In this document: one piece after another, positions 2,518 through 59,880 of the stretch
Position numbering within the stretch: the first letter of the stretch is position 1
Layout of the letters: every line of letters starts with the position of its first letter
Source: Candidatus Omnitrophota bacterium
GTDB taxonomy: Bacteria; Omnitrophota; Gorgyraeia; Gygaellales; Profunditerraquicolaceae
DNA length: 64,000 nt
Reading direction: 5' to 3'
Assembly (NCBI GenBank): GCA_025453395.1
Contig: JALOQK010000001.1
Location: forward strand, 10,244 to 74,243
Made by a program: the position numbers and the translations under genes
The notes under the pieces: model-generated
Database searches by the model: none
What the model saw: only the letters and a program-made list of their open reading frames with translations
What the model was told of the DNA's origin: nothing

Positions 2518-2533
2518 ATTAAGGAAGAAAAAC

Positions 2534-2621
2534 GGAGAGGCTGGGATTTGAACCCAGGGACCCAGTTTCCCAGGTCAACTCATTAGCAGTGAGTTGCTTT
2601 CGACCACTCAGCCACCTCTCC
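2534..2621 (-). tRNA. tRNA-Ser (anticodon GCT)
   Basis: Manual fold. Acceptor GGAGAGG/CCTCTCC+G; D-arm GTGGCTGAGTGGTCGAAAGC; anticodon stem-loop ACTCA-CTGCTAA-TGAGT gives GCT; long variable arm; T-loop GGTTCAAATCC. Confidence 0.8.
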
Positions 2622-4013: not shown

Positions 4014-4199
4014 GAAAGCTAAAAATTAAAAGCGTAAAACGAAAAACCACATCGTAAAATTCAAAATTTTTAATTTTAAATTATAGCTTTGCGTTTTTAG
4101 TTTTGCGCTTTTAGCTTTAAAAGCGCGCCCAGCCCTTCGACTCGTCCGCCAAAATGCGGCGTCCTCGCTCAGGACGGGCGTTGACTTGCAACAAATATA

Positions 4200-4273
4200 C
4201 GCGCCCAGCAGGAGTTGAACCTGCAACAACTTGCTCCGTAGGCAAGTGCTCTATCCAATTGAGCTATGGGCGC
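4200..4273 (-). tRNA. tRNA-Arg (anticodon ACG)
   Basis: Manual fold. Acceptor GCGCCCA/TGGGCGC+G; anticodon stem-loop CTTGC-CTACGGA-GCAAG gives ACG; T-loop GGTTCAACTCC. Confidence 0.8.
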
Positions 4274-4318
4274 ATAGTAAATGCGCGCTTGAGCCTGCCG
4301 GCAGGCAGGCAATACCGC
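4274..4318 (-). promoter_or_regulatory. conserved 5' leader/promoter element shared by both tRNA-Arg genes
   Basis: atagtaaatgcgcgcttgagcctgccggcaggcaggcaataccgc recurs at 48549-48590 with 2-3 changes. It contains the 14-bp palindrome gcctgccggcaggc and a gcgcat/atgcgc inverted repeat overlapping the tRNA 5' end. Confidence 0.4.
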
Positions 4319-18808: not shown

Positions 18809-19192
18809 TTACTCGTTGCTATCTCGGACCTTGGCGCGCAGGGATTTCTTCTGTGAATGCCTGCGTTTTGCCTCTAAAACCTTTAGTTTCGCCTGGCGCG
18901 ATCTCTTACGCTTTTGCCTGCGGATTTTCTCAATGCGTTTTTTCTCTTCGGAAAGCTCGCCCAAAACTTGGGATTCAATTTTCTTTAACAAAATCCTGCG
19001 GGCGAGAAAGCGATTTTGAGCTTGCGAGCGTTCTTGCTGGCATTTAACTTCAATACCAGTTGGGATATGACGCAAGAAAACACAAGTAGCGACTTTATTC
19101 ACATTCTGACCGCCGGGGCCTTGAGCGCGGATAAATTTCTCTTCCAAGTCACTCTCCCGCACCCCCAACCGCGCCATCATTTCTTTTATCAT
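18809..19192 (-). CDS. arfB: alternative ribosome-rescue factor / peptidyl-tRNA hydrolase (ArfB/YaeJ family)
   Basis: 127 aa; GGQ motif ([10 protein letters not shown]) plus a highly basic C-terminal tail. Confidence 0.75.
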
Positions 19193-24702: not shown

Positions 24703-24703
24703 A

Positions 24704-27350: not shown

Positions 27351-28849
27351 AAGTCGCGCTCGCCGTTTTTTATCCGGCGGTGATATTCTTTAAAAGAATT
27401 TAAAATACTGGAAGAAAAATCAGCCGGCACCCTTTTTTCAATTTCGGCGATTTCACGGGCAATCAATCCTTCACCCATCTTCCTGGTATCATCGCTTGCA
27501 AAATCTTCCAGCCATTCCTGAAAAGTCAAAACCGCGTTCAATTTACACAAACACCCCTCTTTGCCGCTTTTTAACATACCCATAATATTATCCCCGGTTC
27601 TTCCGCAGCGGTAACCGGCAGTGCAAAAAGAAGTAATATATCCCATTGACGCCAGATCGCAGATCACCTCATCAAGCGAGCGGCTGTCGCCTAAAATAAA
27701 CTGCTGGATATTTTCCTCCTGCGTGTCCCCGCGTTCGCTGTAGGCTCCGATACCGACTTTGGAAGAAGCATCACGCTGGGTGCACATGGCTATAACTTCC
27801 CGCATCACTGAAGGGTTTTCCCTGCAGGTAACAATCATTCCGGCATAAGGTATAGACAGCCTCAACACTGCGACTAATTTCTTAAAATCTTCATCGCTGA
27901 CCAAGTACCCGGTATTTTTGACAAAAGGGGTATTTGCCGCCGGCTCAAGCCTGGGGAAAGACACGGTGTGCGGGCCAATACCAAAAAAACTTTCCAGGTC
28001 GCGGGCATGAGAAAGTAATCCCATTACTTCAAAGCGCCAATCATAAAGCCCAAACAGCGCTCCGATAGCCACATCATCAATTCCGGCTTCCATTGCCCGG
28101 TGCAAACTATAAAGCCGCCAGAGGTAATCGCCTTTTATGGTCTGCGCGGGATGCACCAGGCTATAAGTCTGGCGATGATAAGTCTCCTGAAAGATCTGGA
28201 AAGTCCCTATCCCCGCGGCTTTGACCTGTTTATAATCTGCGATACTCATAGAAGCGGCATTGACATTTACCCTGCGGATAGCCCCCTCGCCGCGGCGGGC
28301 CTTGACTTTTACCGCGTAAATCTGGCGCATTACTTCACAGATATAATCCGCTCCCGACGCAGGATGCTCACCAAAAACCACAATCAGCCTCTTATGCCCC
28401 AGATTTCCAGCAAGCACTTCTGCTTCTTTGCGCACTTCATCAAGGCTTAATCTCCTGCGCTTAATAACCTGATTCTCCCCGCGAAACCCGCAATAGGCGC
28501 AATTATTCACGCACAAGCTTGAGCAGTAAAGCGGCGCGAAAGTCACTATCCGGTTGTCGTAAACTTTTCTTTTGATGCGCGCGGCAGCCTGGAATATCTG
28601 TTCCCATAAATCTTGGCCTTGCACATTAAGCAAAGCCGCAGTTTCCGCCAACTCAAGTGTCTGAACATCCAAAGCTTTCTGGATAATATCCCGTATCTTG
28701 CCAGGGTCAACATTCCGCTTGGCTTCCAACAAACGCGCAATCTGCGGTTCGTCTATAAAACACCTGCCGCCTTTAAGATATTTGGCGTTCTCTTCTTCCC
28801 TGATCACTTCTTTCTTCCAATTCTTAGCTTGTTCCAGAATATTCTGCAT
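27341..28849 (-). CDS. hydG: [FeFe]-hydrogenase maturase HydG (ThiH-like radical SAM tyrosine lyase)
   Basis: 502 aa; CVNNCAYCGF radical-SAM motif; GHKRL; C-terminal extra Cys cluster (CTAGYRC...GCLC). Confidence 0.7.
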   Translation of the reverse strand: MQNILEQAKNWKKEVIREEENAKYLKGGRCFIDEPQIARLLEAKRNVDPGKIRDIIQKALDVQTLELAETAALLNVQGQDLWEQIFQAAARIKRKVYDNRIVTFAPLYCSSLCVNNCAYCGFRGENQVIKRRRLSLDEVRKEAEVLAGNLGHKRLIVVFGEHPASGADYICEVMRQIYAVKVKARRGEGAIRRVNVNAASMSIADYKQVKAAGIGTFQIFQETYHRQTYSLVHPAQTIKGDYLWRLYSLHRAMEAGIDDVAIGALFGLYDWRFEVMGLLSHARDLESFFGIGPHTVSFPRLEPAANTPFVKNTGYLVSDEDFKKLVAVLRLSIPYAGMIVTCRENPSVMREVIAMCTQRDASSKVGIGAYSERGDTQEENIQQFILGDSRSLDEVICDLASMGYITSFCTAGYRCGRTGDNIMGMLKSGKEGCLCKLNAVLTFQEWLEDFASDDTRKMGEGLIAREIAEIEKRVPADFSSSILNSFKEYHRRIKNGERDLCF

Positions 28850-28853
28850 ATTT

Positions 28854-29108
28854 TTAAACCTTAGCCAGGGTACTTTTCACGGTCACGCTCTTAAACATCC
28901 CTAACTTTCCGGTCAGTGCTCCGATTTCATCAGTAGTACCGTCCACGATCAGAGTGATCACATTCACTTTGCGTTCATGATAAGGAAAGCCCATTCTGGC
29001 GATGATGATCTTGCCGAATTCAGTTAAGATTTGATTCACTTTAGGCGCTGCTTCTTCTCTTTTTTTGATGATAACTACTACCGCTCCCAAATGTTTTTCC
29101 ATATCCAT
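28854..29108 (-). CDS. TM1266-like small protein associated with [FeFe]-hydrogenase maturation clusters
   Basis: ~84 aa starting at MDMEKHLGAVVVII. Members of this family typically sit beside hydE/F/G. The longer ORF to 29186 is probably an over-extension. Confidence 0.5.
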   Translation of the reverse strand: MDMEKHLGAVVVIIKKREEAAPKVNQILTEFGKIIIARMGFPYHERKVNVITLIVDGTTDEIGALTGKLGMFKSVTVKSTLAKV

Positions 29109-29269
29109 TCCTTTCTTTTGGTTACTAACAAATAAAAACCCCCGAGCCCTAAAAAAACAAAGCTGGGGGTAAAATTTTATTTTCATTACCCCCTCGGATT
29201 CAGAATACCTCCCTGTTCCTCAGGTATACCTTAATTATAGCACTAAAAGAAATATTGTAAAGCTTCCAG

Positions 29270-29460
29270 AAATAAAAATAAAAGGGCGTTTCTATTTCCC
29301 CATCATGAAACCATGTGAAATCATAGAGACGTCCCCCTGTTATTATAGGAATTAGATTCCGGTTCGGCAGAGCATTTATTTAAGGTACAGCGGCGCATTC
29401 GCTAGGATTACTCCGGTTCGGCAGAGCATTTATTTAAGGTACGGCGCCGCATTCGCTCAC
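29270..29460. repeat. tRNA-Ser-associated repeat element, copy 2, with internal 54-bp tandem unit
   Basis: Homologous blocks to 2190-2480. The unit ggttcggcagagcatttatttaaggtacRgcgScgcattcgct occurs twice. Confidence 0.6.
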
Positions 29461-29494
29461 TCGGCTTATCGCCTCGTGATGCTCATTGCGGCAT

Positions 29495-29529
29495 CCGTAA
29501 ATTTTTTCTTTGTCAGAAAAAATTTACGG
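29495..29529. repeat. perfect 15-bp-arm palindrome (ccgtaaattttttct ttgtc agaaaaaatttacgg) overlapping the tRNA-Ser(GGA) 3' end
   Basis: Perfect inverted repeat. Its right arm ends in the CGG that begins the tRNA 3' acceptor strand. Confidence 0.6.
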
Positions 29530-29612
29530 AGAGGGAGGGATTCGAACCCTCGGAGCCTTGCGACTCACGTGTTCTCCAGACACGCCCGTTACGACCGCTT
29601 CGGTACCTCTCC
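29527..29612 (-). tRNA. tRNA-Ser (anticodon GGA)
   Basis: Manual fold. Acceptor GGAGAGG/CCTCTCC+G; anticodon stem-loop CGTGT-CTGGAGA-ACACG gives GGA; long variable arm; T-loop GGTTCGAATCC. It directly abuts the glgP stop. Confidence 0.8.
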
Positions 29613-31622
29613 TTAATCTTTACGCTTCCAAATTTTCTCTTTATATTGATCCAGCATCCGGTAGGTATTGAAATACGCCCCCGCGCACAAGCAGTTTATC
29701 ATCATATCGATCCAGGGCGAGGAAACATCGACCTGCCCTTTTTTATTGGTCGTATAATAAATCCGCGCCATTTCCCCAAGGGCATCATACAACTGACGAG
29801 AATCTTCATTCATCTTTAAATCATGTTCGTTGCCTATATCCGTACCGTTAAACCTATAACCGAAGATCTTGCCTATCCCCTTATCTTCAGCCTCTACCAC
29901 CCATCCGTCAAGAGTGCTAACTTGAAGCACGCCGTTTAAAATCGCCTTCATGCCGCTTGTGCCGGATGCTTCAAAAGGCGGCAGCGGGTTATTAAGCCAA
30001 ATATCCACGCTTGAAATCAATTTCTTGGCAATAGAAATCCCGTAATTCTCAAGCATAACAATTTTAAAAAGGTCATACGATCCGGAAAGCTGGTCTATTT
30101 TATCAAGCAGCTGATTAATATAGGTAAAACCCAGATTGTCTTTTGGATGAGCTTTCCCGGCGAGGATTACCTGCAAGGGGCCGAATTTCTTGGCGATATC
30201 AATAAGCGCCTGGGCGTCTTGAAGGATCATCCCCGGGCGTTTGTAAGAAGCGATCCTGCGCGCCCAGCAAATAGTTAAAACATCTTTATTAATCTTCCAT
30301 TTCTCAAGCATATTACAGAAATCGGCTTTATTCTCCTGATGCGCCTGCCAGATATCAAAGCGGAAATTCATATCGCTGGCTAATTTCTTGGTTTTATCTA
30401 ATCCCATGGGATTTGCCCTAACATCTCCAATGGATGAAGAATATTTCTCAAGAAGCGCCTTAAATCTATCCGACATCCAGGTGTGAGAATGCACGCCGTT
30501 TGTCACATATTGTACCTTATCCTTATAACGGGGAAACTGCAGATGCATGACTCTTTGATGGCTTAAGGCAACCGCGTTTACTGCCCGGGATGCGTTTATG
30601 GAAAGTAGCGTCAGGTTTACTGTATCGTTATTTTCTTTACCCAATGCCTCTATTAACGCGCAGTCTTCGCTCTTAAGAATCGCGCTTAGATCGCTCACAG
30701 GATAACGGTCATGCCCGGCGGCAACCGGAGTATGGCAGGTATAAACAAAATGCTGGGATAATTCTTTTATTCCGTCGGCAGGGACGCCGCGGGCCCTGCC
30801 CACAAAAGCAAATACCGCGTGGCCTTCATTCATATGATAGGTATTGATCTTATACTTTAATTCATCTACCGCAAGAGCCCCTCCCATACCTAATACGATC
30901 CTCTGCATAATTTGCGCGGTCAGGCTTTCGCTTCTATATAACTGGTCGGTCAAACGGCGAAAACTGCCTTCATTCTCCGGAACATCCGCGTCAAGAAGCA
31001 CCAAAGGTATGACATAATCATGCTTATAGCTATAGACATAATATTTCCAAAGTTTCAAATATAGGTTGCAATTACGTAAAGACACAACAACTTTATTCTT
31101 TAGCGGAACTAGCCCCGGATACGAATGCGCGTGCCAATGCATTGCCTCGGGGAACTGGCCGTATTTAAAAAAGAACCTCTGGCGGAAATATCCGGTATTC
31201 CATAATATCCCCACTCCCACCGCCGGAAGATGATAATCCGCCATAGTCTTTAAAGTATCCCCTGCTAAAACCCCCAATCCTCCGCTATATATGGGAAGAT
31301 CCTCCAGGGAATCCAGTTTCAAAGTGAAAAAATAATCTGCCAAGCGGTAATTGGAGAAAACTTCGTGCTCTGCGACTTTATTCCTGGAATCAGTTAAACG
31401 CACAGACTGGAACCTATTATAAAAACTTGTTGCCAGGCCGTATTCCATGGAAAAATAGGCCAGAGGATTTTCTTTCTCTGATCTTAGGCGCTTCTCGGCT
31501 TCTATAATAGAGCCTAGCGGAAACCCGAAATATTTACCGTCTTTTATATCAACGCTGTAAATATTATCAAAATCATCCACCTCTACCAATGATAGAAATT
31601 CTTCTAACTGCTTGTCTGGCAT
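29613..31622 (-). CDS. glgP: alpha-glucan (glycogen/maltodextrin) phosphorylase, GT35
   Basis: 669 aa; AYFSMEYGL; YSGGLGVLAGD; PLP site EASGTSGMKAILNG. Confidence 0.85.
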   Translation of the reverse strand: MPDKQLEEFLSLVEVDDFDNIYSVDIKDGKYFGFPLGSIIEAEKRLRSEKENPLAYFSMEYGLATSFYNRFQSVRLTDSRNKVAEHEVFSNYRLADYFFTLKLDSLEDLPIYSGGLGVLAGDTLKTMADYHLPAVGVGILWNTGYFRQRFFFKYGQFPEAMHWHAHSYPGLVPLKNKVVVSLRNCNLYLKLWKYYVYSYKHDYVIPLVLLDADVPENEGSFRRLTDQLYRSESLTAQIMQRIVLGMGGALAVDELKYKINTYHMNEGHAVFAFVGRARGVPADGIKELSQHFVYTCHTPVAAGHDRYPVSDLSAILKSEDCALIEALGKENNDTVNLTLLSINASRAVNAVALSHQRVMHLQFPRYKDKVQYVTNGVHSHTWMSDRFKALLEKYSSSIGDVRANPMGLDKTKKLASDMNFRFDIWQAHQENKADFCNMLEKWKINKDVLTICWARRIASYKRPGMILQDAQALIDIAKKFGPLQVILAGKAHPKDNLGFTYINQLLDKIDQLSGSYDLFKIVMLENYGISIAKKLISSVDIWLNNPLPPFEASGTSGMKAILNGVLQVSTLDGWVVEAEDKGIGKIFGYRFNGTDIGNEHDLKMNEDSRQLYDALGEMARIYYTTNKKGQVDVSSPWIDMMINCLCAGAYFNTYRMLDQYKEKIWKRKD

Positions 31623-31700
31623 GTTTATACTAAACTCCTTTTTAACATTATAACACGTTATCTTATTTACGCTATATACTTAACTATGCAAAGGCTAAAA

Positions 31701-31787
31701 CGGTGGGGCAGGGATTCGAACCCTGGGTGGACTTGCGCCCACAACAGTTTTCAAGACTGCCGCTTTCAACCGCTCAGCCACCCCACC
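31701..31787 (-). tRNA. tRNA-Ser (anticodon TGA)
   Basis: Manual fold. Acceptor GGTGGGG/CCCCACC+G; D-arm GTGGCTGAGCGGTTGAAAGC; anticodon stem-loop GCAGT-CTTGAAA-ACTGT gives TGA; long variable arm; T-loop GGTTCGAATCC. Confidence 0.75.
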
Positions 31788-31803
31788 AGAATTTCCTATA
31801 ATC

Positions 31804-32088
31804 CTAACTATTCCAAAAGAAAATCAAGATCCCCAAGCCGCACAACACGCACACCGCTGCAAATATAATCTTGTGCCGCAAAAGCCAGTGATGAAAAACG
31901 TAAACATTCTTCTCTAAAGCGGGAAAGGAGATTTTTCTTATGCCGCCGACTTCTTTAGAGAGCCGGCTTTCTAATCTTTCATAATCCTCTGCCCTGAGAA
32001 GCAGAAAAAACGACCCGCCGATAAGAATAAAAAAACTCAATGATATCTGAAAAACTTTGAAAAGATTTACAATAACTTCATTGTCCAT
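31804..32088 (-). CDS. small membrane protein (hypothetical)
   Basis: 94 aa with two hydrophobic helices; no recognisable family. Confidence 0.35.
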   Translation of the reverse strand: MDNEVIVNLFKVFQISLSFFILIGGSFFLLLRAEDYERLESRLSKEVGGIRKISFPALEKNVYVFHHWLLRHKIIFAAVCVLCGLGILIFFWNS

Positions 32089-32317
32089 ACATGCCCTCCT
32101 CGTAAAATAGTTTTAATCCCCGAATACTCAAACTTTTTAACATATAAAAATTAAGGTGCGGCGCCGAAACCAGTCTATCGCAGACACTACGCTCGCTACG
32201 GACCTTGTCGGGCCGTTTAACGTCTGCTAAGATACCAAAACCAGTGGTTTTAGTATCCGCCTTTTGCCGCCAGTGGCGACAACAAAATACTTAACTCGCT
32301 GCTGGCTTTGTCATTAA

Positions 32318-32362
32318 GGCACTGGTTCGCCAGAGGCTCACCAGTGCCGTTTTTTCTTTTTC
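32318..32362 (+). terminator. plus-strand rho-independent terminator (ggcactgg...ccagtgcc gttttttcttttt)
   Basis: 8-bp stem, 15-nt loop, T-tract. No plus-strand ORF lies upstream, so it may terminate an sRNA from ~32150-32360. Confidence 0.4.
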
Positions 32363-32371
32363 TATATGTTT

Positions 32372-32399
32372 CGAGAAATTATCTTCAGATAATTTCTCG
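32372..32399. repeat. palindrome cgagaaattatct tc agataatttctcg 3' of tRNA-Ser(CGA)
   Basis: Same palindrome as 2488-2517 with a 2-nt loop change. It is nested in the larger IR ccgttttttctttt...aaagaaaaaacgg. Confidence 0.6.
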
Positions 32400-32416
32400 C
32401 ACAAGGAAAGAAAAAA

Positions 32417-32504
32417 CGGAGAGGGTGAGATTCGAACTCACGTGAGCCTTACGGCCCAACCGCTTTTCGAGAGCGGCCCGTTATGACCACTTCGGTACCT
32501 CTCC
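32417..32504 (-). tRNA. tRNA-Ser (anticodon CGA)
   Basis: Manual fold. Acceptor GGAGAGG/CCTCTCC+G; anticodon stem-loop CCGCT-CTCGAAA-AGCGG gives CGA; long variable arm; T-loop AGTTCGAATCT. Confidence 0.8.
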
Positions 32505-32505
32505 T

Positions 32506-32684
32506 TGAGCACAAGAATCTTTTATCTAGCGAAACTTCGCGAAGCGAAGTAAGAGCACAAGAATCTTTTATCTAGCGAAACTTCGCGAAGCGAAGTAAGA
32601 GCACAGTAAGAGCACAAGAATCTTTTATCCAGCGAAACTTCGCGAAGCGAAGTACGAGCACAAGAATCTTTTATCTAGCGAAAT
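32506..32684. repeat. ~3.8 copies of the 46-bp tandem repeat directly 5' of tRNA-Ser(CGA)
   Basis: Unit gagcacaagaatcttttatctagcgaaacttcgcgaagcgaagtaa. It is the same family as 2624-2744. One unit is truncated to 11 bp. Confidence 0.7.
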
Positions 32685-32815
32685 ACCACCGAATATGCCA
32701 AAATTATGGAACAGAATTTTGGCATATCTTATGAGGTGGTATAATCATAAAACTTAAATTTCAAATAAATTATCACCCGCCAACGCTTTATGGCGGGCAA
32801 AAATCTTTATCTAGC

Positions 32816-33508
32816 TTATTTTCTAAATAGGAAAAGCTGTTCGTAGGCCCTCTGGAAAATAAACCCTGCCCGGTCAAGAAAATTCCTGCAGAAAATCACG
32901 AAATCAAAACCCTTTAAAATAACGCTAAGGCACAAAGAAAGAAGAAAGATATTTATGATATAGATAAGCGAAAACCCAAAAAGGTAATTGGCTTTTAAGG
33001 CATCCTCTTTCTTGGTGCGCAAAGTCTTGGCGGAATAAACAAGATGCAAGCTCAAAGAGAATGCCGCCCAGAAAATAAAATACCCCAACAATCCTTCAAA
33101 CGCCCAGGATAAACAAGCATATAAAACAAGAAGAAGGATTGTATAAACCGGTAAAAGGTACGGCGCGATCCTCACCAGGGGCCTGACAAAAGTAAATATC
33201 CATTCCAGTATTTTCTGCCCGCGGGTGTAAATTTTTGCTGGTTCCCAGACAAAAAGATAAATTAATAAAAAGGCGGCTATCCCCCACCAGAAAATATCCT
33301 GGATTGCGGGATCAACTTGCATAAACTGGCTGTAGAAAGCGCTGGATATGGAATAAACAAAAGGAAGAAGCAATATTCCAAGAATAAATTTGACAAAAAT
33401 AAAAAGCCACTTTGCCCAACCGGAAAGCTTACTTTTAATTTCCGAAGCCATTGGCGAAGGTTCCGGGCCTTCCGCAGGTATATTTTTAAAAAATTCTTTC
33501 TCTGCCAT
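32816..33508 (-). CDS. polytopic membrane protein (hypothetical)
   Basis: 230 aa, ~6 TM. The true start is probably the internal Met (MASEIKSK, ~33451), because the long form overlaps the serS 3' end. Confidence 0.4.
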
Positions 33509-34754
33509 CGAAATAGGGCCTCAAGTTTTCCGGGATAACGACCGACCCGTCTTTTTGTTGATAATTTTCTAAGATCGCGATAACTGTGCGCGCTAAAGCC
33601 ACCCCTGAACCGTTTAAAGTGTGCACATAATCCAACTTCTTGGTATCCTTGCGCCGGAATTTAATATTGGCGCGGCGGGCCTGGAAATTCTCAAAATTAC
33701 TGCAGCTTGAGACTTCAAACCACTTATCGCTTCCTGCGGCATAAGCCTCTAGATCATAGCACTTGCTGGCGGCGAAACTTACATCCTGCGTGGAAAGAAG
33801 CACCACCCGATACGGCAGGCCTAATAATTGCAAAACCTCCTCGGCATTGCCCACTAATTTTTCCAACTCATCATAGGAATCTTCCGGCTTTACAAATTTA
33901 ACCATCTCTACTTTATCAAACTGATGCACGCGCGATAAACCCTTGGTGTCTTTTCCGTACGAGCCAGCTTCACGGCGAAAACAAGCACTGTAGGCAGCAT
34001 AATAAATAGGGAGATTTTCTTCCTCAAGAATATCATCACGGAAAATATTGGTTACCGGAACTTCTGCTGTGGGGATAAGAAATAAATCATCGTCTTTTAA
34101 TTTATACATATCCTCTTCCAACTTTGGAAGCTGCCCAGTGCCGGTCATCGAAGCGCGATTCACTAAAAACGGCGGGAATATTTCTGTGTATCCGTGTTTC
34201 TTGGTGTGTAAATCAAGCATAAAATTAATAAGCGCTCTTTCAAGCCGCGCGCCTAAGCCTTTATAAAGTATCCAATTTGAACCGGTGATTTTGGTGCCGC
34301 GCGGAAAATCAACGATATCTAATTTTTGGCAGATTTCTGTATGCGGCACAGGTTTAAAGTCGAACTTCGCAGGCTGACCCCAACTTCTTACAATCTTATT
34401 ATTTGAAGCATCGCCTTTGGGCAAAGAAACATGCGGGATATTGGGGATAGTCATGGCGATTTTCTTCATTGCCTCGTCAAGCGAGCGCTCTTCCTGTTCC
34501 AAAGAAGAAATCTTCTCGGAAATTTCTTTCATGGACGCAATCACCGGTTTGGCGTCTTGTTTTTCCTTAAGAAGCCGGCTTATTTCGTCGTTAGCTTTAT
34601 TTCTTTGAGCACGCAAAGATTCCATTTCTGTAGAAATCTTACGGCGGGATTCATCAAGATTTAAGAATTCATCAAGCCCAAGAGATAGATTCCTATCCTT
34701 AAGCGCCTGCCTTACTACATCCGGATTTTCGCGAATAAATTTAATATCTAACAT
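33486..34754 (-). CDS. serS: seryl-tRNA synthetase
   Basis: 422 aa; N-terminal coiled-coil arm plus class II core (motif 2 FRREAGS, motif 3 [15 protein letters not shown]). Confidence 0.9.
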
Positions 34755-34784: not shown

Positions 34785-36239
34785 TTAACCCTTAATTACC
34801 CCTAACGGACGCATCCTGCAGACGCGTTTCGCCAAACCTGCCTCATGCACCACGCGCACCACATCATTCACATCCTTATACGCCGCAGGAGCTTCCTCCA
34901 CAATTGTGTCGCGCCCTGAAGCCTTTACAATTATACCCTTGGATTGCAAATCTTTCAATAGGATATCTTTATTTATTAAACGCAAGGCAGATGTGCGGGA
35001 TTTGACTCTACCCGCGCCATGACAAGCAGAGCCAAAGGTTTCGTCCATGGCTTTTTGCGTGCCGAACAAAAGATATGAATTTCTCCCCATATCACCGGGA
35101 ATAATTACCGGCTGGCCAAACTGGCGGTATTTATCCGGCAAGGCGGGATGCCCCGGGCCAAAGGCGCGGGTGGCGCCCTTTCTATGCACACATAAAGCTT
35201 TCTGCTCTTTTCCAACCATGTGTTTCTCTATTTTAGCGATATTATGCGCCACATCATAAAGCAAACGCATGCCTAATTTCTCCCAAGATTTACTAAAGAC
35301 GCGCGCGAAAACTTCCCGGGACAAATGCATCAAACACTGACGATTCGCCCAAGCGTAATTTGCCGCGCATTTCATTGCTCCTAAATAAGCCTTGCCTTCT
35401 TGAGAGTTAACCGGCGCGCAAGCAAGCTGGCGGTCCGGAACAGTAATGGAATATTTTTGCATGCAACCGACCATTTCTCTGGCATAATCATCGCAGATTT
35501 GATAACCAAACCCCCGCGATCCAGAATGAATCATCACAGTTACCTGCCCCAAACGCAATTCCAGCGCGTCGCAAATTTCGCGGTCATAAAGCTGGTCAAT
35601 TACCTGCACTTCCAAAAAATGATTTCCTGAACCCAATGTCCCGGACTGCGATTGCCCTCGTTTATAGGCCTTCTCTGAGACCATATCAGGAAGCGCGCCT
35701 TGCATACATCCGTTTTCTTCAGTATAAATTAAATCCTCATCTATGCCAAAACCCCTTTTCACCGCCCAACCCGCGCCCTTAAGTAATATTTCTTTTTCTT
35801 CTCTGGCGCTTAAGCGGATATCACCTTCAGAGCCCACCCCTGATGGAATATCAGAAAACAAAGCATAGACTAAAGTTTCGAGTTTATCTTTAACTTCATC
35901 ATAATCAAGGTACGTAGTCAAAAGCCTGATGCCGCAATTTATATCATACCCTACCCCTCCGGGAGAAATAACTCCTGCTTCTTCCGGGTCGGTTGCCGCC
36001 ACCCCTCCGATCGGAAAGCCAAAACCCCAGTGTATATCCGGCATGGCCAAAGACGCTCTAACAATCCCCGGCAAGAACGCCACATTTGCCACCTGTTGGA
36101 CAGCTTTATCCTGCAAAATATCCTTAAGAAGTTTTTCATCCGCGTAAATAATGCCCGGCACGCGCATGCCGCCAGTTTTAGGAACGCGCCAGCGAAAATC
36201 GTCAATTTTCTCTAATTTTATTTCAGACATCAAAGACAA
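34785..36239 (-). CDS. rtcB: RtcB-family RNA 3'-phosphate ligase
   Basis: 484 aa; conserved SGNHFLEVQ, His/Cys metal ligands, C-terminal GRV. Confidence 0.85.
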   Translation of the reverse strand: MSLMSEIKLEKIDDFRWRVPKTGGMRVPGIIYADEKLLKDILQDKAVQQVANVAFLPGIVRASLAMPDIHWGFGFPIGGVAATDPEEAGVISPGGVGYDINCGIRLLTTYLDYDEVKDKLETLVYALFSDIPSGVGSEGDIRLSAREEKEILLKGAGWAVKRGFGIDEDLIYTEENGCMQGALPDMVSEKAYKRGQSQSGTLGSGNHFLEVQVIDQLYDREICDALELRLGQVTVMIHSGSRGFGYQICDDYAREMVGCMQKYSITVPDRQLACAPVNSQEGKAYLGAMKCAANYAWANRQCLMHLSREVFARVFSKSWEKLGMRLLYDVAHNIAKIEKHMVGKEQKALCVHRKGATRAFGPGHPALPDKYRQFGQPVIIPGDMGRNSYLLFGTQKAMDETFGSACHGAGRVKSRTSALRLINKDILLKDLQSKGIIVKASGRDTIVEEAPAAYKDVNDVVRVVHEAGLAKRVCRMRPLGVIKG

Positions 36240-36645
36240 CCTGGGCCTGGTAACCGCGCGGGGTTTGGGAAAGCTTAAGTTCGTGGTAGGTAGCAGCTTT
36301 TATTTCAGTATTAACTTTATAATGATTCATATCTACGCCCACAGCAACAGCATCTATGAATTTGTCACTTACCTGATTGATCTTAAAATCCTCAAAAACC
36401 ATTGATTCCGTCTGCGACAAATACAATAATTGATTCAGCCAATTCACTAAAAGCTCTTCAGCGTTAGCGCCTTTTTGCATCACAACCATTTGATGGCTTT
36501 CTGTTTTAGAGGGATTGACTTTTTGAGCAGAAATATCAAAAAGCGCCAAGCCAGCATTACGGAAAAGGCCAGATAAGTCTTTTGCCTGCACCCGCATGCC
36601 GATATCTGCGGTATGATCTAAGATCTGGTAAAAATCTTTTCCCAT
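36223..36645 (-). CDS. archease (RtcB activator)
   Basis: 140 aa; DHTADIGMRV signature; overlaps the rtcB start. Confidence 0.75.
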   Translation of the reverse strand: MGKDFYQILDHTADIGMRVQAKDLSGLFRNAGLALFDISAQKVNPSKTESHQMVVMQKGANAEELLVNWLNQLLYLSQTESMVFEDFKINQVSDKFIDAVAVGVDMNHYKVNTEIKAATYHELKLSQTPRGYQAQVVFDV

Positions 36646-36653
36646 AGGATAAC

Positions 36654-38435
36654 TTATCTGGAATAAACCGGCCGCGCGCAGTAATGGGTATGCAGAAGCT
36701 CTTCGGATTTCTCGCCTAATGGCTTTTCCAGAAACTCCTCGTATAATTTTTTAACCGCCGGATTCTCATGGGACTTGCGGATAGGCTTATTTTTATCTTC
36801 CTCGTAAATAGCCTGCATTCTTTTCTGGCGCACTTCTGTATTAGTGGGCAAAGGCTGGCCGCCTCCGCCGATACACCCGCCGGGGCAGGTCATAATCTCA
36901 ATAAAAGCATATGGAGACTTTCCGGATTTTATTTCATCAAGCAATACGCGCGCTTTGCTTAAAGAACTTGCCACCGCCACTTTTATTTTTAAGCCATCAA
37001 TATCCACTTCCGCGGTTTTGATTCCATCTAAACCGCGCAAATTCTCAAAGTCTAGTTTTTCAAGCGTTTTTCCTGTTAACACTTCATAGGCGGTGCGCAG
37101 CGCCGCCTCCATAACTCCGCCGGTTGCGCCGAAAATTACTGCCGCGCCGGTTGAAACTCCCAGAGGTTCATCAAAATTCTCATCTTTTAATTCATTAAAA
37201 CATATCCCCGCCTCTTGTATCATGCGCGCGGCCTCGCGGGTAGTTAAAACATAATCCACGTCAAAAAACGCCTCTTCATCCTTAAGTTTCATCTTATCTT
37301 TCCAATATAAAAAGGCGCTTTTCATTTCCGCTCGCTTGGCCTCAAATTTCTTGGCAGTGCAGGGCATAATAGAAACTACCACAATATTTCTGGGGTCAAC
37401 GCCCATCTTTTGGGCGTAATAAGTCTTGGCAATTGCCCCGAACATCTGCTGGGGAGATTTACAGCTTGATACGTGTTTTAAGGCCTCAGGATAAAAATGC
37501 TCGGCAAACTTAATCCAGCCTGGCGAGCAGGAAGTAATCATCGGCAAAACACCTTTATGCTTAATGCGCTCAATCAACTCAAAACCTTCCTCCATAATGG
37601 TAAGATCGGCGCTAAACTGCGTATCAAAAACCTTATTGAATCCCATACGGCGAAGCGCGGCTGCCATTTTGCCGGTAGCCAAACTCCCCGCAGGCATGCC
37701 GAATTCCTCGCCTATGGAAGCGCGCACTGCCGGAGCAGTTTCCACTAAAACTATTTTTTTAGGGTCTGACAGATCCCGCCATACATTTTCAATCGCGCTT
37801 TGCTCAATAATCGCGCCGGTTGGACAAACCAATAAACATTGCCCGCAGTTAATACATTCAACATTGCCCAGGCCCATCTCCATAAAAGTTGAAACGTAGC
37901 TTAACTTACCGCGGTGTATAGTATCAATGGCATTTACCGACTGCACTTTAGAGCAGACCGCGATACAACGCCGGCACAAAATACATTTATCCGCGTCACG
38001 GATCAGAGAAGGAGAAGTCTTATCTACTGTAATGCCGGATTTAAGCGCCTTGACAAAAGGGGCATCTCTGACCCCCATATCATGCGCCAGGCGGCGCAAT
38101 TCGCAATGCTGATTGCGGTCGCAAAAAAAACAATCTTCAGGATGAGACGCAAGCAGCAATTCCAGATTTGTCTTGCGCGCGCGGCGCACACGCTGGCTGT
38201 TAGTAAGAATCTCCATGCCGTTGTTTACCGCGGTAACACATGAGCGCAAAAGCGTCTTTGCCCCCTTTACTTCCACGACACAAATAGAACAGCTGGCCTC
38301 TTCACTTATACCTTCAAGATAACAAAGCGTCGGGATGACAATCCCGGCGCTTCTGCAGGCTGCAAGTATCGTTGAGCCCTGAGGAACCTCTATATCTTTT
38401 CCGTCAATTTTTATGCGCACATTATTTTCCGGCAT
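36654..38435 (-). CDS. hydA: [FeFe] hydrogenase catalytic subunit HydA (M3 architecture: 2Fe-2S + accessory 4Fe-4S domains + H-domain)
   Basis: 593 aa. Motif L2 MPCTAKKFE and L3 EIMTCPGGCIGGGGQP are canonical. L1 reads ITSCSPGW (tgc tcg on the coding strand) instead of TSCCPGW. Confidence 0.85.
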   Translation of the reverse strand: MPENNVRIKIDGKDIEVPQGSTILAACRSAGIVIPTLCYLEGISEEASCSICVVEVKGAKTLLRSCVTAVNNGMEILTNSQRVRRARKTNLELLLASHPEDCFFCDRNQHCELRRLAHDMGVRDAPFVKALKSGITVDKTSPSLIRDADKCILCRRCIAVCSKVQSVNAIDTIHRGKLSYVSTFMEMGLGNVECINCGQCLLVCPTGAIIEQSAIENVWRDLSDPKKIVLVETAPAVRASIGEEFGMPAGSLATGKMAAALRRMGFNKVFDTQFSADLTIMEEGFELIERIKHKGVLPMITSCSPGWIKFAEHFYPEALKHVSSCKSPQQMFGAIAKTYYAQKMGVDPRNIVVVSIMPCTAKKFEAKRAEMKSAFLYWKDKMKLKDEEAFFDVDYVLTTREAARMIQEAGICFNELKDENFDEPLGVSTGAAVIFGATGGVMEAALRTAYEVLTGKTLEKLDFENLRGLDGIKTAEVDIDGLKIKVAVASSLSKARVLLDEIKSGKSPYAFIEIMTCPGGCIGGGGQPLPTNTEVRQKRMQAIYEEDKNKPIRKSHENPAVKKLYEEFLEKPLGEKSEELLHTHYCARPVYSR

Positions 38436-38449
38436 GGCATTTCCTTCTT

Positions 38450-41400
38450 TTATTCAATAAGCGCTTCCTCTTTCACGTCGCAACGCAGGCAACGCGAAGC
38501 TTCAATATCAACCTGTTTTCTTGATAATCCTTGCGAAACTTCCTTAAAATTACAAAGGCGTGATCCGACCGGGAGAAACTTTCCGGATTGTTTGGACTGT
38601 CTTGCCGGCTTAAGAGGAACTTTATTCCTGTATTCATGCTTTTTAAATAACTTAATAAACCTATCCTTACCGGTTAACTCTTTATCAATTACCTGCGCCG
38701 CTTTCTTGCCATAACCCATGGCTTCAACCGCGGTAGAAGGCCCGGTAACCAAATCCCCTCCCGCGTAATAACCGCTTACGTTGGCCTTGAGGGTAAAACC
38801 ATCAATCTTGACCGTGCCGTTTTTATTAAGATTGATCCCGCTTTCCCTGATAAATTCCGAATCCACGCGCTCGCCGATAGCCACCATCACCGTATCGCAG
38901 GGGATCTGGTAAGTTTCATTAGTTGCCTCGGGGATTTTTCTGCCCGCAAAGTCATAGCCTCCGGGCAGCATCTTAACAACTTCAAGCGCCTTTACCTTTT
39001 TTTGCGCATCAGCCAATATCGCCTTGGGAGAAGCAAGAAAAACAAATTTAATGCCCTCAGCTTCGGCCTCTCTTATCTCGTCTTTATTCGCTGGCATATC
39101 CTGCTTTTCTCTGCGGTAAACAACCGTAACTTTTGCGCCCAGCCTCCAGGCGGTGCGCGCGGCATCAATAGCGGCGTTACCAGCCCCGATAATCAAAACT
39201 TCCTTTCCGATGTCAATTTTCTTGCCTAGAAGAACTTCTTCCAGGAAATGCGTAGCCGAATAAACACCCGGGAATTCTTCTCCGGGGATCTGCAAAAACA
39301 TGCTTTGGTAAGAACCGGTTGCCAAAAATACCGCATCGTAATCCTGCCTTATTTGTTTAAGCCTTTCAGAATTTACTTTCTTATTAAAAACAAATTTTAC
39401 TCCCAGCTTTTTAATAAAGCCTAATTCCTTGGCAAGGATCTTTTTGGGCAGGCGATACTCAGGTATCCCGTAACGCAAAATACCGCCTGGTTGGGATTTT
39501 TCTTCGAAGACAACTACTTCGTGGCCTAAGCGCACAAGATAAAAAGCTGCGGTAAAACCTGCGGGGCCGGCTCCGATGACCGCAACTTTCTTGCCGGTCT
39601 TAGGCATTTTCTCCTTGATAAAACGCCTCAGGACTTCAGGTTCTTTCTTTAGCTTATACACCTGGTCCGCGACAAATCTGTGCACTTCGCCTTGAGAAAC
39701 TGGCTGGTCAAGGTCTTCCCTGCGACAACGCATCTTGCAATGGAAATGACAAATCCTGCCTGAAGAAGAGGGTATGGGATTATCCCGGTAGATCAGGTCA
39801 AAAGCATCTAAAAGCCTGTCTTCTTTTATAAGTTCCAGGAAACCGGGGATATTCATATGCAAAGGGCAGCTGTTTTCGCAAGGAGAAAGAAAAAGCGTCT
39901 TACACACGCCTGCATCGCAATGTTTTCCCTGAATATGTTCAAGATATTCATTGCGGAAATATTTCATAGTAGTTAATATTGGATTTGGCCCGGTCTGGCC
40001 AAGCCCGCAGAGGGCGGTATCTTTAATTACCTCGCCTAAACTTTCCAGCTGCAACAATTGCCCAAGATTTGCTTTACCCTCAGCAATAGCATTCAAGGTA
40101 TTAAGCGACTGATATAGGCCTTCACGGCAGGGAGTGCATTTTCCGCAAGATTCAGAAGTAGTAAACTCGGTAAAATAACGCGCTACATCCACCATGCAAT
40201 TGTCATCGTCCATAACCACCATCCCGCCTGAACCCATAATCGCGCCAAGCGCATTTAAGGATTCATAGTCTACAGGGGTCTTAAATAATTCTACAGGGAT
40301 ACATCCTCCGGAAGGGCCTCCGGTCTGCACAGCTTTGACTTTTTTCTTAGTCCCGGTACCTTGCCCGATATTATAGATTAACGTAAGAAGAGATTCGCCT
40401 AAAGCAAGCTCAACTAATCCGGTATTTTTTATTTTCCCCACCAAAGAAAAGACTTTTGTGCCTGAGCTTTTTTCTGTGCCGGTCTGGTTAAACCAGCTTC
40501 CGCCTTTGGCGATGATCGCCGGAATGTTACAGTATGTTTCCACATTATTGATATTTGTAGGCTTATTCCAAATCCCCTTTTGGGCGGGAAACGGCGGACG
40601 CGGACACGGCATGCCTCTTCTTCCTTCAATAGAAGCAATAAGCGCAGTTTCTTCGCCGCAGACAAAGGCCCCTGCCCCCTCAACAAGATGTATATCAAAG
40701 CAAAAATTACTGCCTAAAATGTTTTTCCCCAAAAACCCGTATTCCTGCGCTTGAAGGATAGCTTTCTGCAAACGCTCAACCGCAAGAGGATATTCCGCGC
40801 GGATATAAATAATGCCTTCATTTCCGCCCATGGCAAAGGCTGCGATAAGCATGCCTTCAATAAGCATATGCGGGTCGCTTTCAATTTCATTGCGATTCAT
40901 ATATGCTCCGGGATCGCCCTCATCAGCATTGCAGACAATATATTTCTTGTCCGCTTTTTCCTGTTTCATTAACTCCCATTTTCTCCCTGTAGGAAAACCC
41001 GCGCCTCCTCTGCCGCGAAGCTTTGACAACTTTACTTCTTCTATGACTTGTTCTGGCGACATACCGTTTATAACCTTAGCAATACTGCTATATCCGCCAA
41101 CAGCAATATACTCTTGGATATCTTCGGGATTAATCAGGCCGCAATCTCGCAAGACGATTTTTTTCTGCCATTTAAAGAAATCTACTTGATTCCATAAAGG
41201 TATCGCATCCAACCCTTGCCCATAAGTAATCTGGCCGGTTAAGTGATCCCATTTCTCTATACGGCAAAGGGCTTTTTTCTCCGGAATATTGCCACGGGAA
41301 ACAGCATCAAGTATTGCCTTAACATCTTTGGTTGTGACTTTCTGAAGAATAACAAGCGGATTTCCCGGAATAGCGATATTTACCAATGGCTCATTCACGC

Positions 41401-41605
41401 AAAAACCAAAACAACCTACCTTGGTAAGATTAATCTTGAGTTTTCTTTTAGTAATGCCACTAGCAAATGCTTTATAGACCTGGTCCGCGCCGTTACCTAT
41501 GCCACAGGTACCTAAACCCACGGCAATGCGCGGCCTGTCAGTAAAGATTTTACTCAAACCCTTTTCTCTGACCACTTGCAAATCATTCAGATTCATAATC
41601 TTCAT
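38450..41605 (-). CDS. NuoF-like (51-kDa, FMN/NADH) flavoprotein fused to a GltD-like FAD/NAD(P)H oxidoreductase domain; hydrogenase diaphorase subunit
   Basis: 1051 aa. The N-terminal region has a thioredoxin-like segment plus GRGGAGFPTGRKW FMN site and 4Fe-4S Cys clusters. The C-terminal ~450 aa have two dinucleotide folds (VAVIGAGPAGFTAA; VLIIGAGNAAIDAA), typical of glutamate synthase small-subunit-like reductases. Confidence 0.75.
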   Translation of the reverse strand: MKIMNLNDLQVVREKGLSKIFTDRPRIAVGLGTCGIGNGADQVYKAFASGITKRKLKINLTKVGCFGFCVNEPLVNIAIPGNPLVILQKVTTKDVKAILDAVSRGNIPEKKALCRIEKWDHLTGQITYGQGLDAIPLWNQVDFFKWQKKIVLRDCGLINPEDIQEYIAVGGYSSIAKVINGMSPEQVIEEVKLSKLRGRGGAGFPTGRKWELMKQEKADKKYIVCNADEGDPGAYMNRNEIESDPHMLIEGMLIAAFAMGGNEGIIYIRAEYPLAVERLQKAILQAQEYGFLGKNILGSNFCFDIHLVEGAGAFVCGEETALIASIEGRRGMPCPRPPFPAQKGIWNKPTNINNVETYCNIPAIIAKGGSWFNQTGTEKSSGTKVFSLVGKIKNTGLVELALGESLLTLIYNIGQGTGTKKKVKAVQTGGPSGGCIPVELFKTPVDYESLNALGAIMGSGGMVVMDDDNCMVDVARYFTEFTTSESCGKCTPCREGLYQSLNTLNAIAEGKANLGQLLQLESLGEVIKDTALCGLGQTGPNPILTTMKYFRNEYLEHIQGKHCDAGVCKTLFLSPCENSCPLHMNIPGFLELIKEDRLLDAFDLIYRDNPIPSSSGRICHFHCKMRCRREDLDQPVSQGEVHRFVADQVYKLKKEPEVLRRFIKEKMPKTGKKVAVIGAGPAGFTAAFYLVRLGHEVVVFEEKSQPGGILRYGIPEYRLPKKILAKELGFIKKLGVKFVFNKKVNSERLKQIRQDYDAVFLATGSYQSMFLQIPGEEFPGVYSATHFLEEVLLGKKIDIGKEVLIIGAGNAAIDAARTAWRLGAKVTVVYRREKQDMPANKDEIREAEAEGIKFVFLASPKAILADAQKKVKALEVVKMLPGGYDFAGRKIPEATNETYQIPCDTVMVAIGERVDSEFIRESGINLNKNGTVKIDGFTLKANVSGYYAGGDLVTGPSTAVEAMGYGKKAAQVIDKELTGKDRFIKLFKKHEYRNKVPLKPARQSKQSGKFLPVGSRLCNFKEVSQGLSRKQVDIEASRCLRCDVKEEALIE

Positions 41606-42126
41606 TTTTTCTTCTTTCGGGCAATCCCTTGCACGATCTGACGTAATTTACTTTCAGTCATATGGCCGTAGATAACTCCATCCACCTCTACAACCGGCGC
41701 CAACGCGCACTGGCCAAAACAAGCCACTGTCCTTAAGGTAAATTTATTGTCCGCAGTAGTTAAAAATAGCTTCTCGCCCTGATGATGGCCCTCTTCTTTC
41801 AGGCCTAGAAGCTGTTTAAGATATTCCAGAATATTTTTTGAGCGTCGGGTATGGCAGGCAGTGCCGCGGCAGATAATAATAGTATGGTCGCCTTGGGGCT
41901 TAAGATTAAAAAAAGCGTAAAAAGTAACTACCCCGTAGATTTTGGCAAGAGGGATATTGGTTTTTTGAGAAATGTATTCTAATGTTTCCTGAGGAAGATA
42001 CTTGTGGCAATTTAGCTGCTGGACTTCTTCTAATATGCCCAAAAGCGCTCCGGGATTCGAGCCATATTTAGCAATTACCCGGTCTATCTTTTTGGTATGG
42101 TTACTTTGCGTGGACATTTCCGCCAT
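41602..42126 (-). CDS. NuoE-like [2Fe-2S] thioredoxin-fold subunit of the hydrogenase (HydC/HndA type)
   Basis: 174 aa; CRGTAC...CFGQCALAP Cys pattern. There is a 4-nt overlap with the downstream flavoprotein gene. Confidence 0.75.
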   Translation of the reverse strand: MAEMSTQSNHTKKIDRVIAKYGSNPGALLGILEEVQQLNCHKYLPQETLEYISQKTNIPLAKIYGVVTFYAFFNLKPQGDHTIIICRGTACHTRRSKNILEYLKQLLGLKEEGHHQGEKLFLTTADNKFTLRTVACFGQCALAPVVEVDGVIYGHMTESKLRQIVQGIARKKKK

Positions 42127-42253: not shown

Positions 42254-42326
42254 TGGGCCATGCGGGAGTCGAACCTGCGACCTTGACATTAAGAGTGTCC
42301 TGCTCTACCAATTGAGCTAATGGCCC
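42254..42326 (-). tRNA. tRNA-Lys (anticodon CTT)
   Basis: Manual fold. Acceptor GGGCCAT/ATGGCCC+A; D-arm GCTCAATTGGTAGAGC; anticodon loop CTCTTAA gives CTT; T-arm GCAGGTTCGACTCCCGC with one mismatch. Confidence 0.7.
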
Positions 42327-48450: not shown

Positions 48451-48475
48451 AGCCTTCGCTGATTAATATTTTACA

Positions 48476-48548
48476 CACGCCCGAGTGGAGTCGAACCACC
48501 AATAGCCAGTTCCGAAGACTGGTGCCCTATCCATTAGGCTACGGGCGC
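48476..48548 (-). tRNA. tRNA-Arg (anticodon TCG)
   Basis: Manual fold. Acceptor GCGCCCG/CGGGCGT (G1-U72 wobble) +G; anticodon stem-loop CCAGT-CTTCGGA-ACTGG gives TCG; T-loop GGTTCGACTCC. Confidence 0.7.
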
Positions 48549-48590
48549 ATAGTAAATGCGCGACTTGCGCCTGCCGGCAGGCAATACCGC
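48549..48590 (-). promoter_or_regulatory. second copy of the conserved tRNA-Arg 5' leader/promoter element
   Basis: atagtaaatgcgcgacttgcgcctgccggcaggcaataccgc versus 4274-4318. Confidence 0.4.
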
Positions 48591-59589: not shown

Positions 59590-59880
59590 TTAAGCCTCAA
59601 GGCGGGTAATTAAAAACCTTAAGATATTTTCGTTAAGCGTGTAAATCTGCTTTAATTTTACTATTCCCTGCGGCGGCATATTAAAACCGATCAAATAATA
59701 AACTGCCTCGCTGAATTTCTTAATCGGGAAATACAATTTCTTCCTATCTGACCAAACTCCAGAAGAAGAAACCACGCCTTCATTTTTCACGATTAGTTCC
59801 GCAAGATGCGAAAACAAAGTTTTTCTCGCCTCTTCCGGAAGATCCGGCCTGACAAGAACCATTACTTCATACTTATTCAT
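59590..59880 (-). CDS. rpsF: 30S ribosomal protein S6
   Basis: 96 aa; MNKYEVMVLVRPDL. Confidence 0.85.
   Translation of the reverse strand: MNKYEVMVLVRPDLPEEARKTLFSHLAELIVKNEGVVSSSGVWSDRKKLYFPIKKFSEAVYYLIGFNMPPQGIVKLKQIYTLNENILRFLITRLEA

Follow-up and report, generated by a model that had tools for sequence, protein, structure and literature searches.

Archease-rtcB operons that hold neither rtcA nor rtcR are known in many bacteria, and the RNA ligase RtcB of Thermus thermophilus requires archease for multiple turnover (PMC3973293, PMC4604427). In the operons of T. thermophilus and Pyrococcus horikoshii (Desai et al. 2014, 2015), archease lies immediately upstream of rtcB, the two genes overlap, and rtcA and rtcR are missing. 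The pair analysed in this work, carried by a 64-kb stretch of DNA from a Candidatus Omnitrophota bacterium (positions 10,244 to 74,243 of contig JALOQK010000001.1, referred to throughout as the window), is arranged in the same way, but it differs from those operons in running directly into serS, the gene for seryl-tRNA synthetase (SerRS), and in being bracketed by tRNA genes. The rtcBA operon of Escherichia coli and Salmonella, under the sigma-54 activator RtcR, likewise encodes an RtcB-family ligase, which is thought to repair broken tRNA or rRNA; it differs in having rtcA and rtcR next to rtcB, whereas neither appears among the Pfam assignments covering the window. The NCBIfam model PRK09588 scores the window RtcB at only 175 bits (against a cut-off of 407), placing it with the longer, archease-linked type, and the gene context suggests an expression that would be constitutive rather than damage-induced.

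Two further arrangements are relevant for comparison. The thrU-tyrU-glyT-thrT-tufB operon of E. coli is a mixed tRNA-protein operon and, as in the cluster of most relatives described here, its tRNA and translation-factor genes lie on a single strand, spaced too closely for each to have its own promoter; the Omnitrophota cluster differs in having tRNAs on both sides of the protein genes, which include an RNA ligase and an aminoacyl-tRNA synthetase. The second is the pairing of serS with tRNA-Ser genes, the order in Bacillus subtilis being serS, trnS-Ser ... tadA. Among approximately 44 informative serS loci from outside Omnitrophota, seven have a tRNA-Ser gene no more than 500 nt downstream: two of Bacillus (L058 and L076, with tRNA-Ser(TGA) 106-115 nt past serS and, in L058, tadA 3.9 kb downstream), two of Syntrophales (L042 and L047, where serS, tRNA-Ser(TGA), tRNA-Ser(GCT) and tRNA-Arg(ACG) fall within 400 nt), one of Nitrospirae (L046), L059 and L062. 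Only one of these approximately 44 loci (L075, Lentisphaerae) has rtcB within 10 kb of serS. The Omnitrophota differ from the Bacillus type in collecting all four serine isoacceptor genes and in adding archease-rtcB and a gene that we call p230. The serS/tRNA-Ser pairing is old and widespread, and the link to rtcB-archease is a clade-specific addition.

Each component of the locus is of a known kind; no mention of a linkage of RtcB or archease with serS, or of either with Omnitrophota, was found in the searchable literature, and the same holds for the combination and its conservation in this clade. Based on sequence comparisons, we favour, with a probability of about 0.6, the view that the locus is a vertically inherited mixed tRNA-protein gene cluster, in which an archease-dependent RtcB would be made together with the tRNA genes.

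Conservation of the block among Omnitrophota

Genes for tRNA were called by ARAGORN across the window, with the Rfam tRNA model as a second call, and protein families were assigned by Pfam and NCBIfam. For the comparison with relatives, a serS-anchored set contained one genome per species, with loci annotated by ARAGORN and tblastn and treated as informative when they had enough flank, an RtcB-anchored set was made up of metagenome contigs, and the main clade was defined on a neighbour-joining SerRS tree.

Archease-rtcB stands directly upstream of serS in 21 of the 28 informative main-clade loci, and a tRNA-Ser gene lies downstream of serS in 29 of 30 informative loci of Omnitrophota type. When the loci are sorted by RtcB identity to the window protein, serS is directly downstream in every one of the 20 informative loci at or above 66%; between 62 and 65%, seven loci have serS directly downstream and nine carry archease-rtcB with neither serS nor tRNA genes nearby; below 60%, all informative loci are of this latter kind. 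Response-regulator genes are found on the flanks of several of the archease-rtcB loci that have no serS. A preliminary description of this DNA, made from the letters alone, had called for a synteny check and had tied its proposal to the adjacency not being unique to this genome; the arrangement archease-rtcB-serS-tRNA-Ser is in fact kept across a deep Omnitrophota clade, and its recurrence in dozens of related genomes places the clustering far outside what chance would give.

The identities of RtcB and SerRS rise and fall together (Spearman 0.75, n=46), as would fit a joint vertical descent of the two genes. In the SerRS tree, rtcB-positive loci are found at the base of the clade, and rtcB-negative loci fall into at least three groups apart from one another (L025/L029/L030, L015 and L011/L019); tRNA-Lys directly precedes serS in L011, L019 and L052. 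A mobile rtcB-archease cassette inserted at tRNA-Lys was considered as the main story and rejected, given the co-varying divergence and the basal position of the rtcB-positive loci.

The junctions are tight in most relatives (medians from 26-56 loci): 20 nt from tRNA-Lys to archease, approximately 1 nt from archease to rtcB (40 relatives), 20 nt from rtcB to serS, an overlap between serS and p230, and 26 nt from p230 to the first tRNA-Ser. This is the spacing expected of a mixed operon, with median gaps of 20-26 nt around the overlapping genes; the window itself has a hairpin after p230 and hydrogenase genes before archease. The tRNA-Ser genes follow in the order TGA, CGA, GGA in all sampled relatives but two and, where contigs reach far enough (L004, L017, L023 and L104), the cluster continues with tRNA-Arg, tadA and tRNA-Ser(GCT). 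The most compact example is L104, in which tRNA-Lys, rtcB, serS, three tRNA-Ser genes, tRNA-Arg, tadA and tRNA-Ser(GCT) are packed into 5 kb.

The distal end of the cluster repeats the pattern seen at serS. In bacteria, tRNA-Arg(ACG) is the substrate of TadA, and tadA is directly 3' of tRNA-Arg(ACG) in the window (3549-4274); the same adjacency of tadA and tRNA-Arg is present in L004, L017, L023 and L104, although the tRNA-Arg beside tadA in L104 has the anticodon GCG instead of ACG, and has its CCA encoded. The tadA/tRNA-Arg(ACG) pair is the second pairing, in this window, of an enzyme gene with the gene of its substrate tRNA.

Outside the block, conservation stops. The genes that flank it in the window (hydrogenase, phosphorylase) are not conserved among the relatives, while the block is, and this retention amid turnover of the outside genes is the pattern expected of an operon. 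Unrelated genes are nevertheless found within the block in several relatives (PilZ-like, membrane or secreted proteins, and an intein inside rtcB).

Group I introns (RF00028, 58 and 62 bits, above the gathering score) were also seen in relatives, splitting tRNA-Lys(UUU) and tRNA-Asn(GUU) (L127 1204-1582, the same in L128, and L017 19852-20288). The split tRNA-Lys belongs to an archease-rtcB-serS block, where approximately 1 kb separates it from archease farther downstream.

The encoded proteins

The window RtcB matches PF01139 over its full length (581.6 bits against a cut-off of 27, model positions 1-426) and aligns with T. thermophilus TTHA1785 at 564 bits and with P. horikoshii RtcB at 561 bits. 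The motifs MPDIHWG, DINCG, GSGNHF, HSGSRG, HRKGAT and CHGAGR are identical in the alignments to 2epg (T. thermophilus) and 7lfq (P. horikoshii), and they cover the guanylylated histidine (in CHGAGR) and the metal-binding Cys, His and Asp residues. The predicted activity of RtcB is a GTP-dependent ligation of 5'-OH ends with ends that bear a 3'-phosphate or a 2',3'-cyclic phosphate. The rtcB start codon lies within the end of archease, with an overlap of 8 nt (as read from the sequence, the JGI gene call agreeing on the start), so that the two genes are adjacent in one operon, as in an archease-dependent RtcB system. Archease itself aligns over its full length with P. horikoshii 4n2p, and was also aligned with 1jw3; the motifs HTAD and KAATYH (KAxTYH) and the C-terminal Asp are all kept.

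Several Omnitrophota rtcB genes encode proteins of approximately 990 aa, with an intein directly before the catalytic Cys of DINCG (Cys98 in P. horikoshii numbering); such genes are present in L010 (7014-9989) and L037 (6896-9892), as well as in L114-L116, L127 and L128. The intein-containing RtcB family model NF038162 aligns across the Cys98 insertion point.

The start of serS is 30 nt past the rtcB stop. SerRS is assigned by the TIGR00414 equivalog (528.9 bits against a cut-off of 301.65), with PF02403 covering the N-terminal coiled-coil arm and PF00587 the class II core; by this protein, the nearest species representatives are Candidatus Omnitrophota metagenome-assembled genomes, at no more than 79% identity. 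Identical SerRS and p230 proteins are found on JGI, Logan and NCBI contigs (MUF05-series locus tags). TadA matches PF14437 (135.8 bits) and PF00383 (104.8 bits), has the HAE and PCxxC motifs and is of stand-alone size (154 aa).

Between serS and the tRNA-Ser genes lies p230, which overlaps the serS stop by 23 nt, is predicted to be translationally coupled to serS, and follows serS in most relatives. It has 312 homologues, and the few that come with a named source are "hypothetical protein" entries from Candidatus Omnitrophica/Omnitrophota metagenome-assembled genomes, with one from Margulisiibacteriota. Their alignment has 19 invariant columns, among which are the charged residues K40, E89, H155 and D169. 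No Pfam, NCBIfam or PDB sequence match was obtained. The AlphaFold2 model is confident (predicted local distance difference test score of 81) and all-helical, as would suit a membrane protein, and no PDB fold matches it significantly. We conclude that p230 is a real gene, of an orphan family of helical membrane proteins found here only in Omnitrophota-type sequences.

Rearrangement in the window and competing explanations

The ancestral order would have been tRNA-Arg(TCG), tRNA-Lys, archease, rtcB, serS, p230, tRNA-Ser(TGA), tRNA-Ser(CGA), tRNA-Ser(GGA), tRNA-Arg(ACG), tadA and tRNA-Ser(GCT). All of these elements are present in the window with their orientation kept, but they extend across 46 kb; the window is a stretched and rearranged copy of the compact ancestral cluster. 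It departs from the ancestral layout at five points: hydrogenase structural genes stand between tRNA-Lys and archease; just past p230 is a terminator-like hairpin; tRNA-Ser(CGA) now stands ahead of tRNA-Ser(TGA); a phosphorylase gene has come between tRNA-Ser(TGA) and tRNA-Ser(GGA); and approximately 25 kb of unrelated genes separate tRNA-Ser(GGA) from tRNA-Arg(ACG). The genes of the trimeric hydrogenase (36654-42126) and their maturation genes (23704-29186) lie on opposite sides of the rtcB-serS-tRNA-Ser block. Since the fetched loci of other species have no hydrogenase homologue at this position, which is shared only with L001 (from the same organism), the hydrogenase genes suggest a recent insertion beside tRNA genes. 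The scattered tRNA-Ser, tRNA-Arg and tadA genes can in this way be recognised as remnants of one compact ancestral cluster, which aids annotation and helps to explain why short-read assemblies break here.

The explanation that we favour would work as follows. Two enzyme genes, serS and tadA, stand beside the genes of their own tRNA substrates, tRNA-Ser and tRNA-Arg(ACG), and archease-rtcB and p230 would have joined this block within the clade. Judging from the spacing, the block would be transcribed as one unit in most relatives and cut by tRNA-processing enzymes, with RtcB made constitutively, together with tRNAs and an essential synthetase, rather than under a stress-sensing RtcR. RtcB may then be a ligase of general use, sealing tRNA or other RNA whose breaks carry 2',3'-cyclic-phosphate or 3'-phosphate and 5'-OH ends, and not a tRNA-Ser specialist.

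Several points weigh against this explanation. Co-transcription is predicted from gene spacing and, in the window, a terminator-like hairpin comes after p230 and the tRNA-Ser genes have distinctive flanks of their own; here the serS transcript probably does not include these tRNA genes. In several relatives the block holds unrelated genes, and rtcB has been lost repeatedly, from which it follows that selection for rtcB at this spot is not strong. An order kept within one clade can be historical inertia, and the RtcB substrate named above is put forward as a proposal only.

A serious rival is a neutral historical linkage, in which the order of an ancestor persists through slow rearrangement and archease-rtcB has no functional or regulatory coupling with serS or the tRNA-Ser genes. 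In its favour, the block tolerates unrelated genes and inteins, losses are repeated, and the window copy is stretched over 46 kb with its tRNA order changed. It is nevertheless rather unlikely in our judgement, as overlaps and junctions of approximately 20 nt last down to about 55-60% SerRS identity while the outside genes are fully replaced, and tight junctions amid complete turnover of the flanks are typical of an operon kept as a unit. The preliminary description had proposed a more specific function, a Ser-decoding maintenance island, in which RtcB and archease re-ligate damaged tRNA-Ser (for instance after attack by an anticodon nuclease) and SerRS recharges it. The clustering of four serine isoacceptor genes with serS and rtcB-archease, kept over a deep clade, would agree with it. 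Yet RtcB recognises RNA end chemistry and not RNA sequence; rtcB-archease was lost at least three times with serS and tRNA-Ser retained; in relatives, the cassette is no farther from tRNA-Lys than from serS; tRNA-Arg(ACG) and tadA are further members of the cluster; archease-rtcB pairs of greater divergence lack both serS and tRNA genes as neighbours; unrelated genes (PilZ-like and membrane proteins in relatives, hydrogenase in this genome) are tolerated in the block; and no nuclease or toxin gene is found among the Pfam assignments of the window. A specificity of RtcB for serine tRNAs is unsupported, and we regard the island as very improbable.

Still less credible is a housekeeping role in tRNA biogenesis, with RtcB and archease needed to make some tRNAs (for instance from halves that are split, permuted or spliced by enzymes, as happens in archaea), despite an RtcB of the archaeal/Thermus type, linked to archease in an operon that appears to be constitutive and has tRNA genes on its flanks, and despite the inteins that some relatives have just before Cys98, where the intein-containing RtcB model aligns across the point. 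All seven tRNA genes of the window are free of introns according to ARAGORN and, in 199 tRNA predictions (window and all fetched loci), every confirmed intron is a self-splicing one of group I and requires no ligase. The enzymatic splicing of archaea and eukaryotes is thus without either of its marks: protein-spliced introns were found neither in the window nor in the relatives' loci, and the window has no splicing endonuclease gene. Moreover, rtcB is dispensable at this locus in several lineages. The preliminary description had also likened the layout to the archaeal/eukaryotic arrangement; many bacteria are already known to have archease-rtcB with neither rtcA nor rtcR (PMC3973293, PMC4604427), and the layout is therefore not specific to those domains.

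Beyond the inherited mixed cluster itself, a further step is conceivable, which we hold to be a long shot: that in this Omnitrophota clade RtcB, dependent on archease and made constitutively, is a housekeeping part of tRNA metabolism, with which very small cells keep re-joining tRNAs that are broken or unusually processed. If true, this would be a bacterial counterpart of the essential archaeal/eukaryotic role of RtcB, with the ligase sharing one transcript with tRNA-Lys, SerRS and the group of tRNA-Ser genes. The best-studied bacterial RtcB case is a stress-induced operon, and an RtcB locked together with tRNA genes and an essential synthetase suggests instead a constitutive role tied to tRNA supply, which bears on what RtcB does in bacteria without protein-spliced tRNA introns. 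These findings do not establish a new mechanism.

The tRNA-Ser genes, their flanks and other features of the window

The features of the locus are collected in Table 1. ARAGORN finds seven tRNA genes in the window, every one on the minus strand, and nearly all genes of the 64 kb are on this strand, with a GC skew that is negative throughout.

Table 1. Features of the cluster, listed in the direction of transcription (positions are those of the window).
Feature	Position	Strand	Evidence and remarks
tRNA-Arg(TCG)	48475..48549	-	ARAGORN, Rfam; upstream partner of tRNA-Lys, the two forming a conserved pair ahead of the cluster in relatives
tRNA-Lys(CTT)	42254..42326	-	ARAGORN, Rfam; here split from archease by hydrogenase genes
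NuoE-like, NuoF-like and HydA [FeFe]-hydrogenase genes	36654..42126	-	Pfam; between tRNA-Lys and archease
Archease, RtcB activator	36223..36645	-	PF01951, 122 bits
RtcB, 3'-phosphate/5'-hydroxyl RNA ligase, 481 aa	34785..36230	-	PF01139, 582 bits
serS, bacterial-type seryl-tRNA synthetase	33486..34754	-	TIGR00414, 529 bits
p230, polytopic all-helical putative membrane protein, 230 aa	32816..33508	-	without Pfam/NCBIfam match
Terminator-like hairpin and T-rich tail, right after the p230 stop	32773..32800	-	
Tandem array, 46-nt unit, abutting the tRNA-Ser(CGA) 5' end	32505..32700	-	Tandem Repeats Finder
tRNA-Ser(CGA)	32417..32504	-	ARAGORN, Rfam
p94, small predicted membrane protein, 94 aa	31804..32088	-	open reading frame; tblastn matches in L009, L088
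tRNA-Ser(TGA)	31700..31788	-	ARAGORN, Rfam
Alpha-glucan phosphorylase	29613..31622	-	TIGR02094 subfamily, 390 bits; passenger gene
tRNA-Ser(GGA)	29527..29612	-	ARAGORN, Rfam
tRNA-Arg(ACG)	4199..4274	-	ARAGORN, Rfam
tadA, tRNA adenosine deaminase, 154 aa	3549..4013	-	PF14437, PF00383
tRNA-Ser(GCT), fourth isoacceptor, distal end of the ancestral cluster	2533..2621	-	ARAGORN, Rfam

The preliminary description was right in each checkable detail of this layout, and left out only p230 and the open reading frame of 94 aa. It had placed three tRNA-Ser genes (CGA, TGA and GGA) downstream of serS on the same strand, with a fourth (GCT) farther away, and ARAGORN confirms the anticodons; archease-rtcB lies directly upstream of serS, as it had stated, and no RTC or RtcR family is found among the Pfam assignments covering the window, in line with the absence of rtcA and rtcR that it reported. 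Its glgP, bracketed by two tRNA-Ser genes, is indeed a phosphorylase, for which the subfamily can now be specified as that of alpha-glucan phosphorylase.

With lengths of 86-89 nt (ARAGORN), a long variable-arm insertion visible in the Rfam alignments and the anticodons GGA, TGA, CGA and GCT, the four genes encode class II tRNA-Ser, and GCU, GGA, UGA and CGA make up the complete bacterial set for the six serine codons. The three clustered genes score 53-61 bits with the Rfam tRNA model (tRNA-Ser(CGA) was absent from the whole-window Rfam run solely through the speed filter), and none of them encodes CCA. The small gene p94 is weakly conserved between tRNA-Ser genes in some relatives.

The phosphorylase stop and tRNA-Ser(GGA) abut without a spacer, the TAA occupying 29615-29613 and the first base of the tRNA being 29612, as had been described before. 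In L015 and L097, a phosphorylase lies between tRNA-Ser(TGA) and tRNA-Ser(CGA), with a gap of approximately 30-45 nt to the next tRNA, so the abutment is specific to this genome. If phosphorylase and tRNA-Ser(GGA) were co-transcribed, an RNase P cut would leave an mRNA ending exactly at its stop codon.

Although tRNA-Ser(GCT) and tRNA-Ser(CGA) are 30 kb apart and their tRNA bodies differ, their flanks are approximately 95% identical. The common 5' flank (2624-2735 and 32505-32700) consists of tandem copies of a 46-nt unit that includes the palindrome CTTCGCGAAG, and the common 3' flank (2470-2532 and 32345-32416) is a T-run followed by a 14-bp hairpin. The copy structure of the array varies between assemblies, and the JGI contig Ga0392394_0000006 ends there. 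The repeat was considered as a promoter and rejected, as a sigma-70 scan gave no site in the array and the best matches by hand inspection reached 7/12 of the consensus; it was likewise rejected as a conserved regulatory element, because fuzzy matching finds the unit in this organism only. No leader or riboswitch, T-box included, was found near serS by Rfam.

In the window, GGCGCCGNACCTTAA with a GC-rich hairpin ahead of it is confined to sites 3' of tRNA-Ser genes (29370-29526, 32151-32165 and 2333-2347, minus strand), and the folding z-score of the tRNA-Ser(GGA) trailer is -5.2. A similar element is present in three relatives, in tandem repeats of 64-73 nt that are perfect or nearly so and directly follow a tRNA-Ser gene (L005 12252-12597, L017 12727-12879 and L025 12081-12243); as these are a minority of the relatives, GGCGCCGNACCTTAA was not retained as a conserved element.

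Downstream of tRNA-Ser(GGA) come the hydrogenase maturation genes, in the order TM1266-like regulator, HydG, aspartase-like and HydF. The same co-oriented stretch also carries, among the genes of ribosomal proteins L25, S6, S18 and L9, ssb and dnaB, two genes of translation quality control, for a 127-aa RF-1-domain protein (ArfB-like, 18809-19192) and for a peptidyl-tRNA hydrolase (59873-60463).

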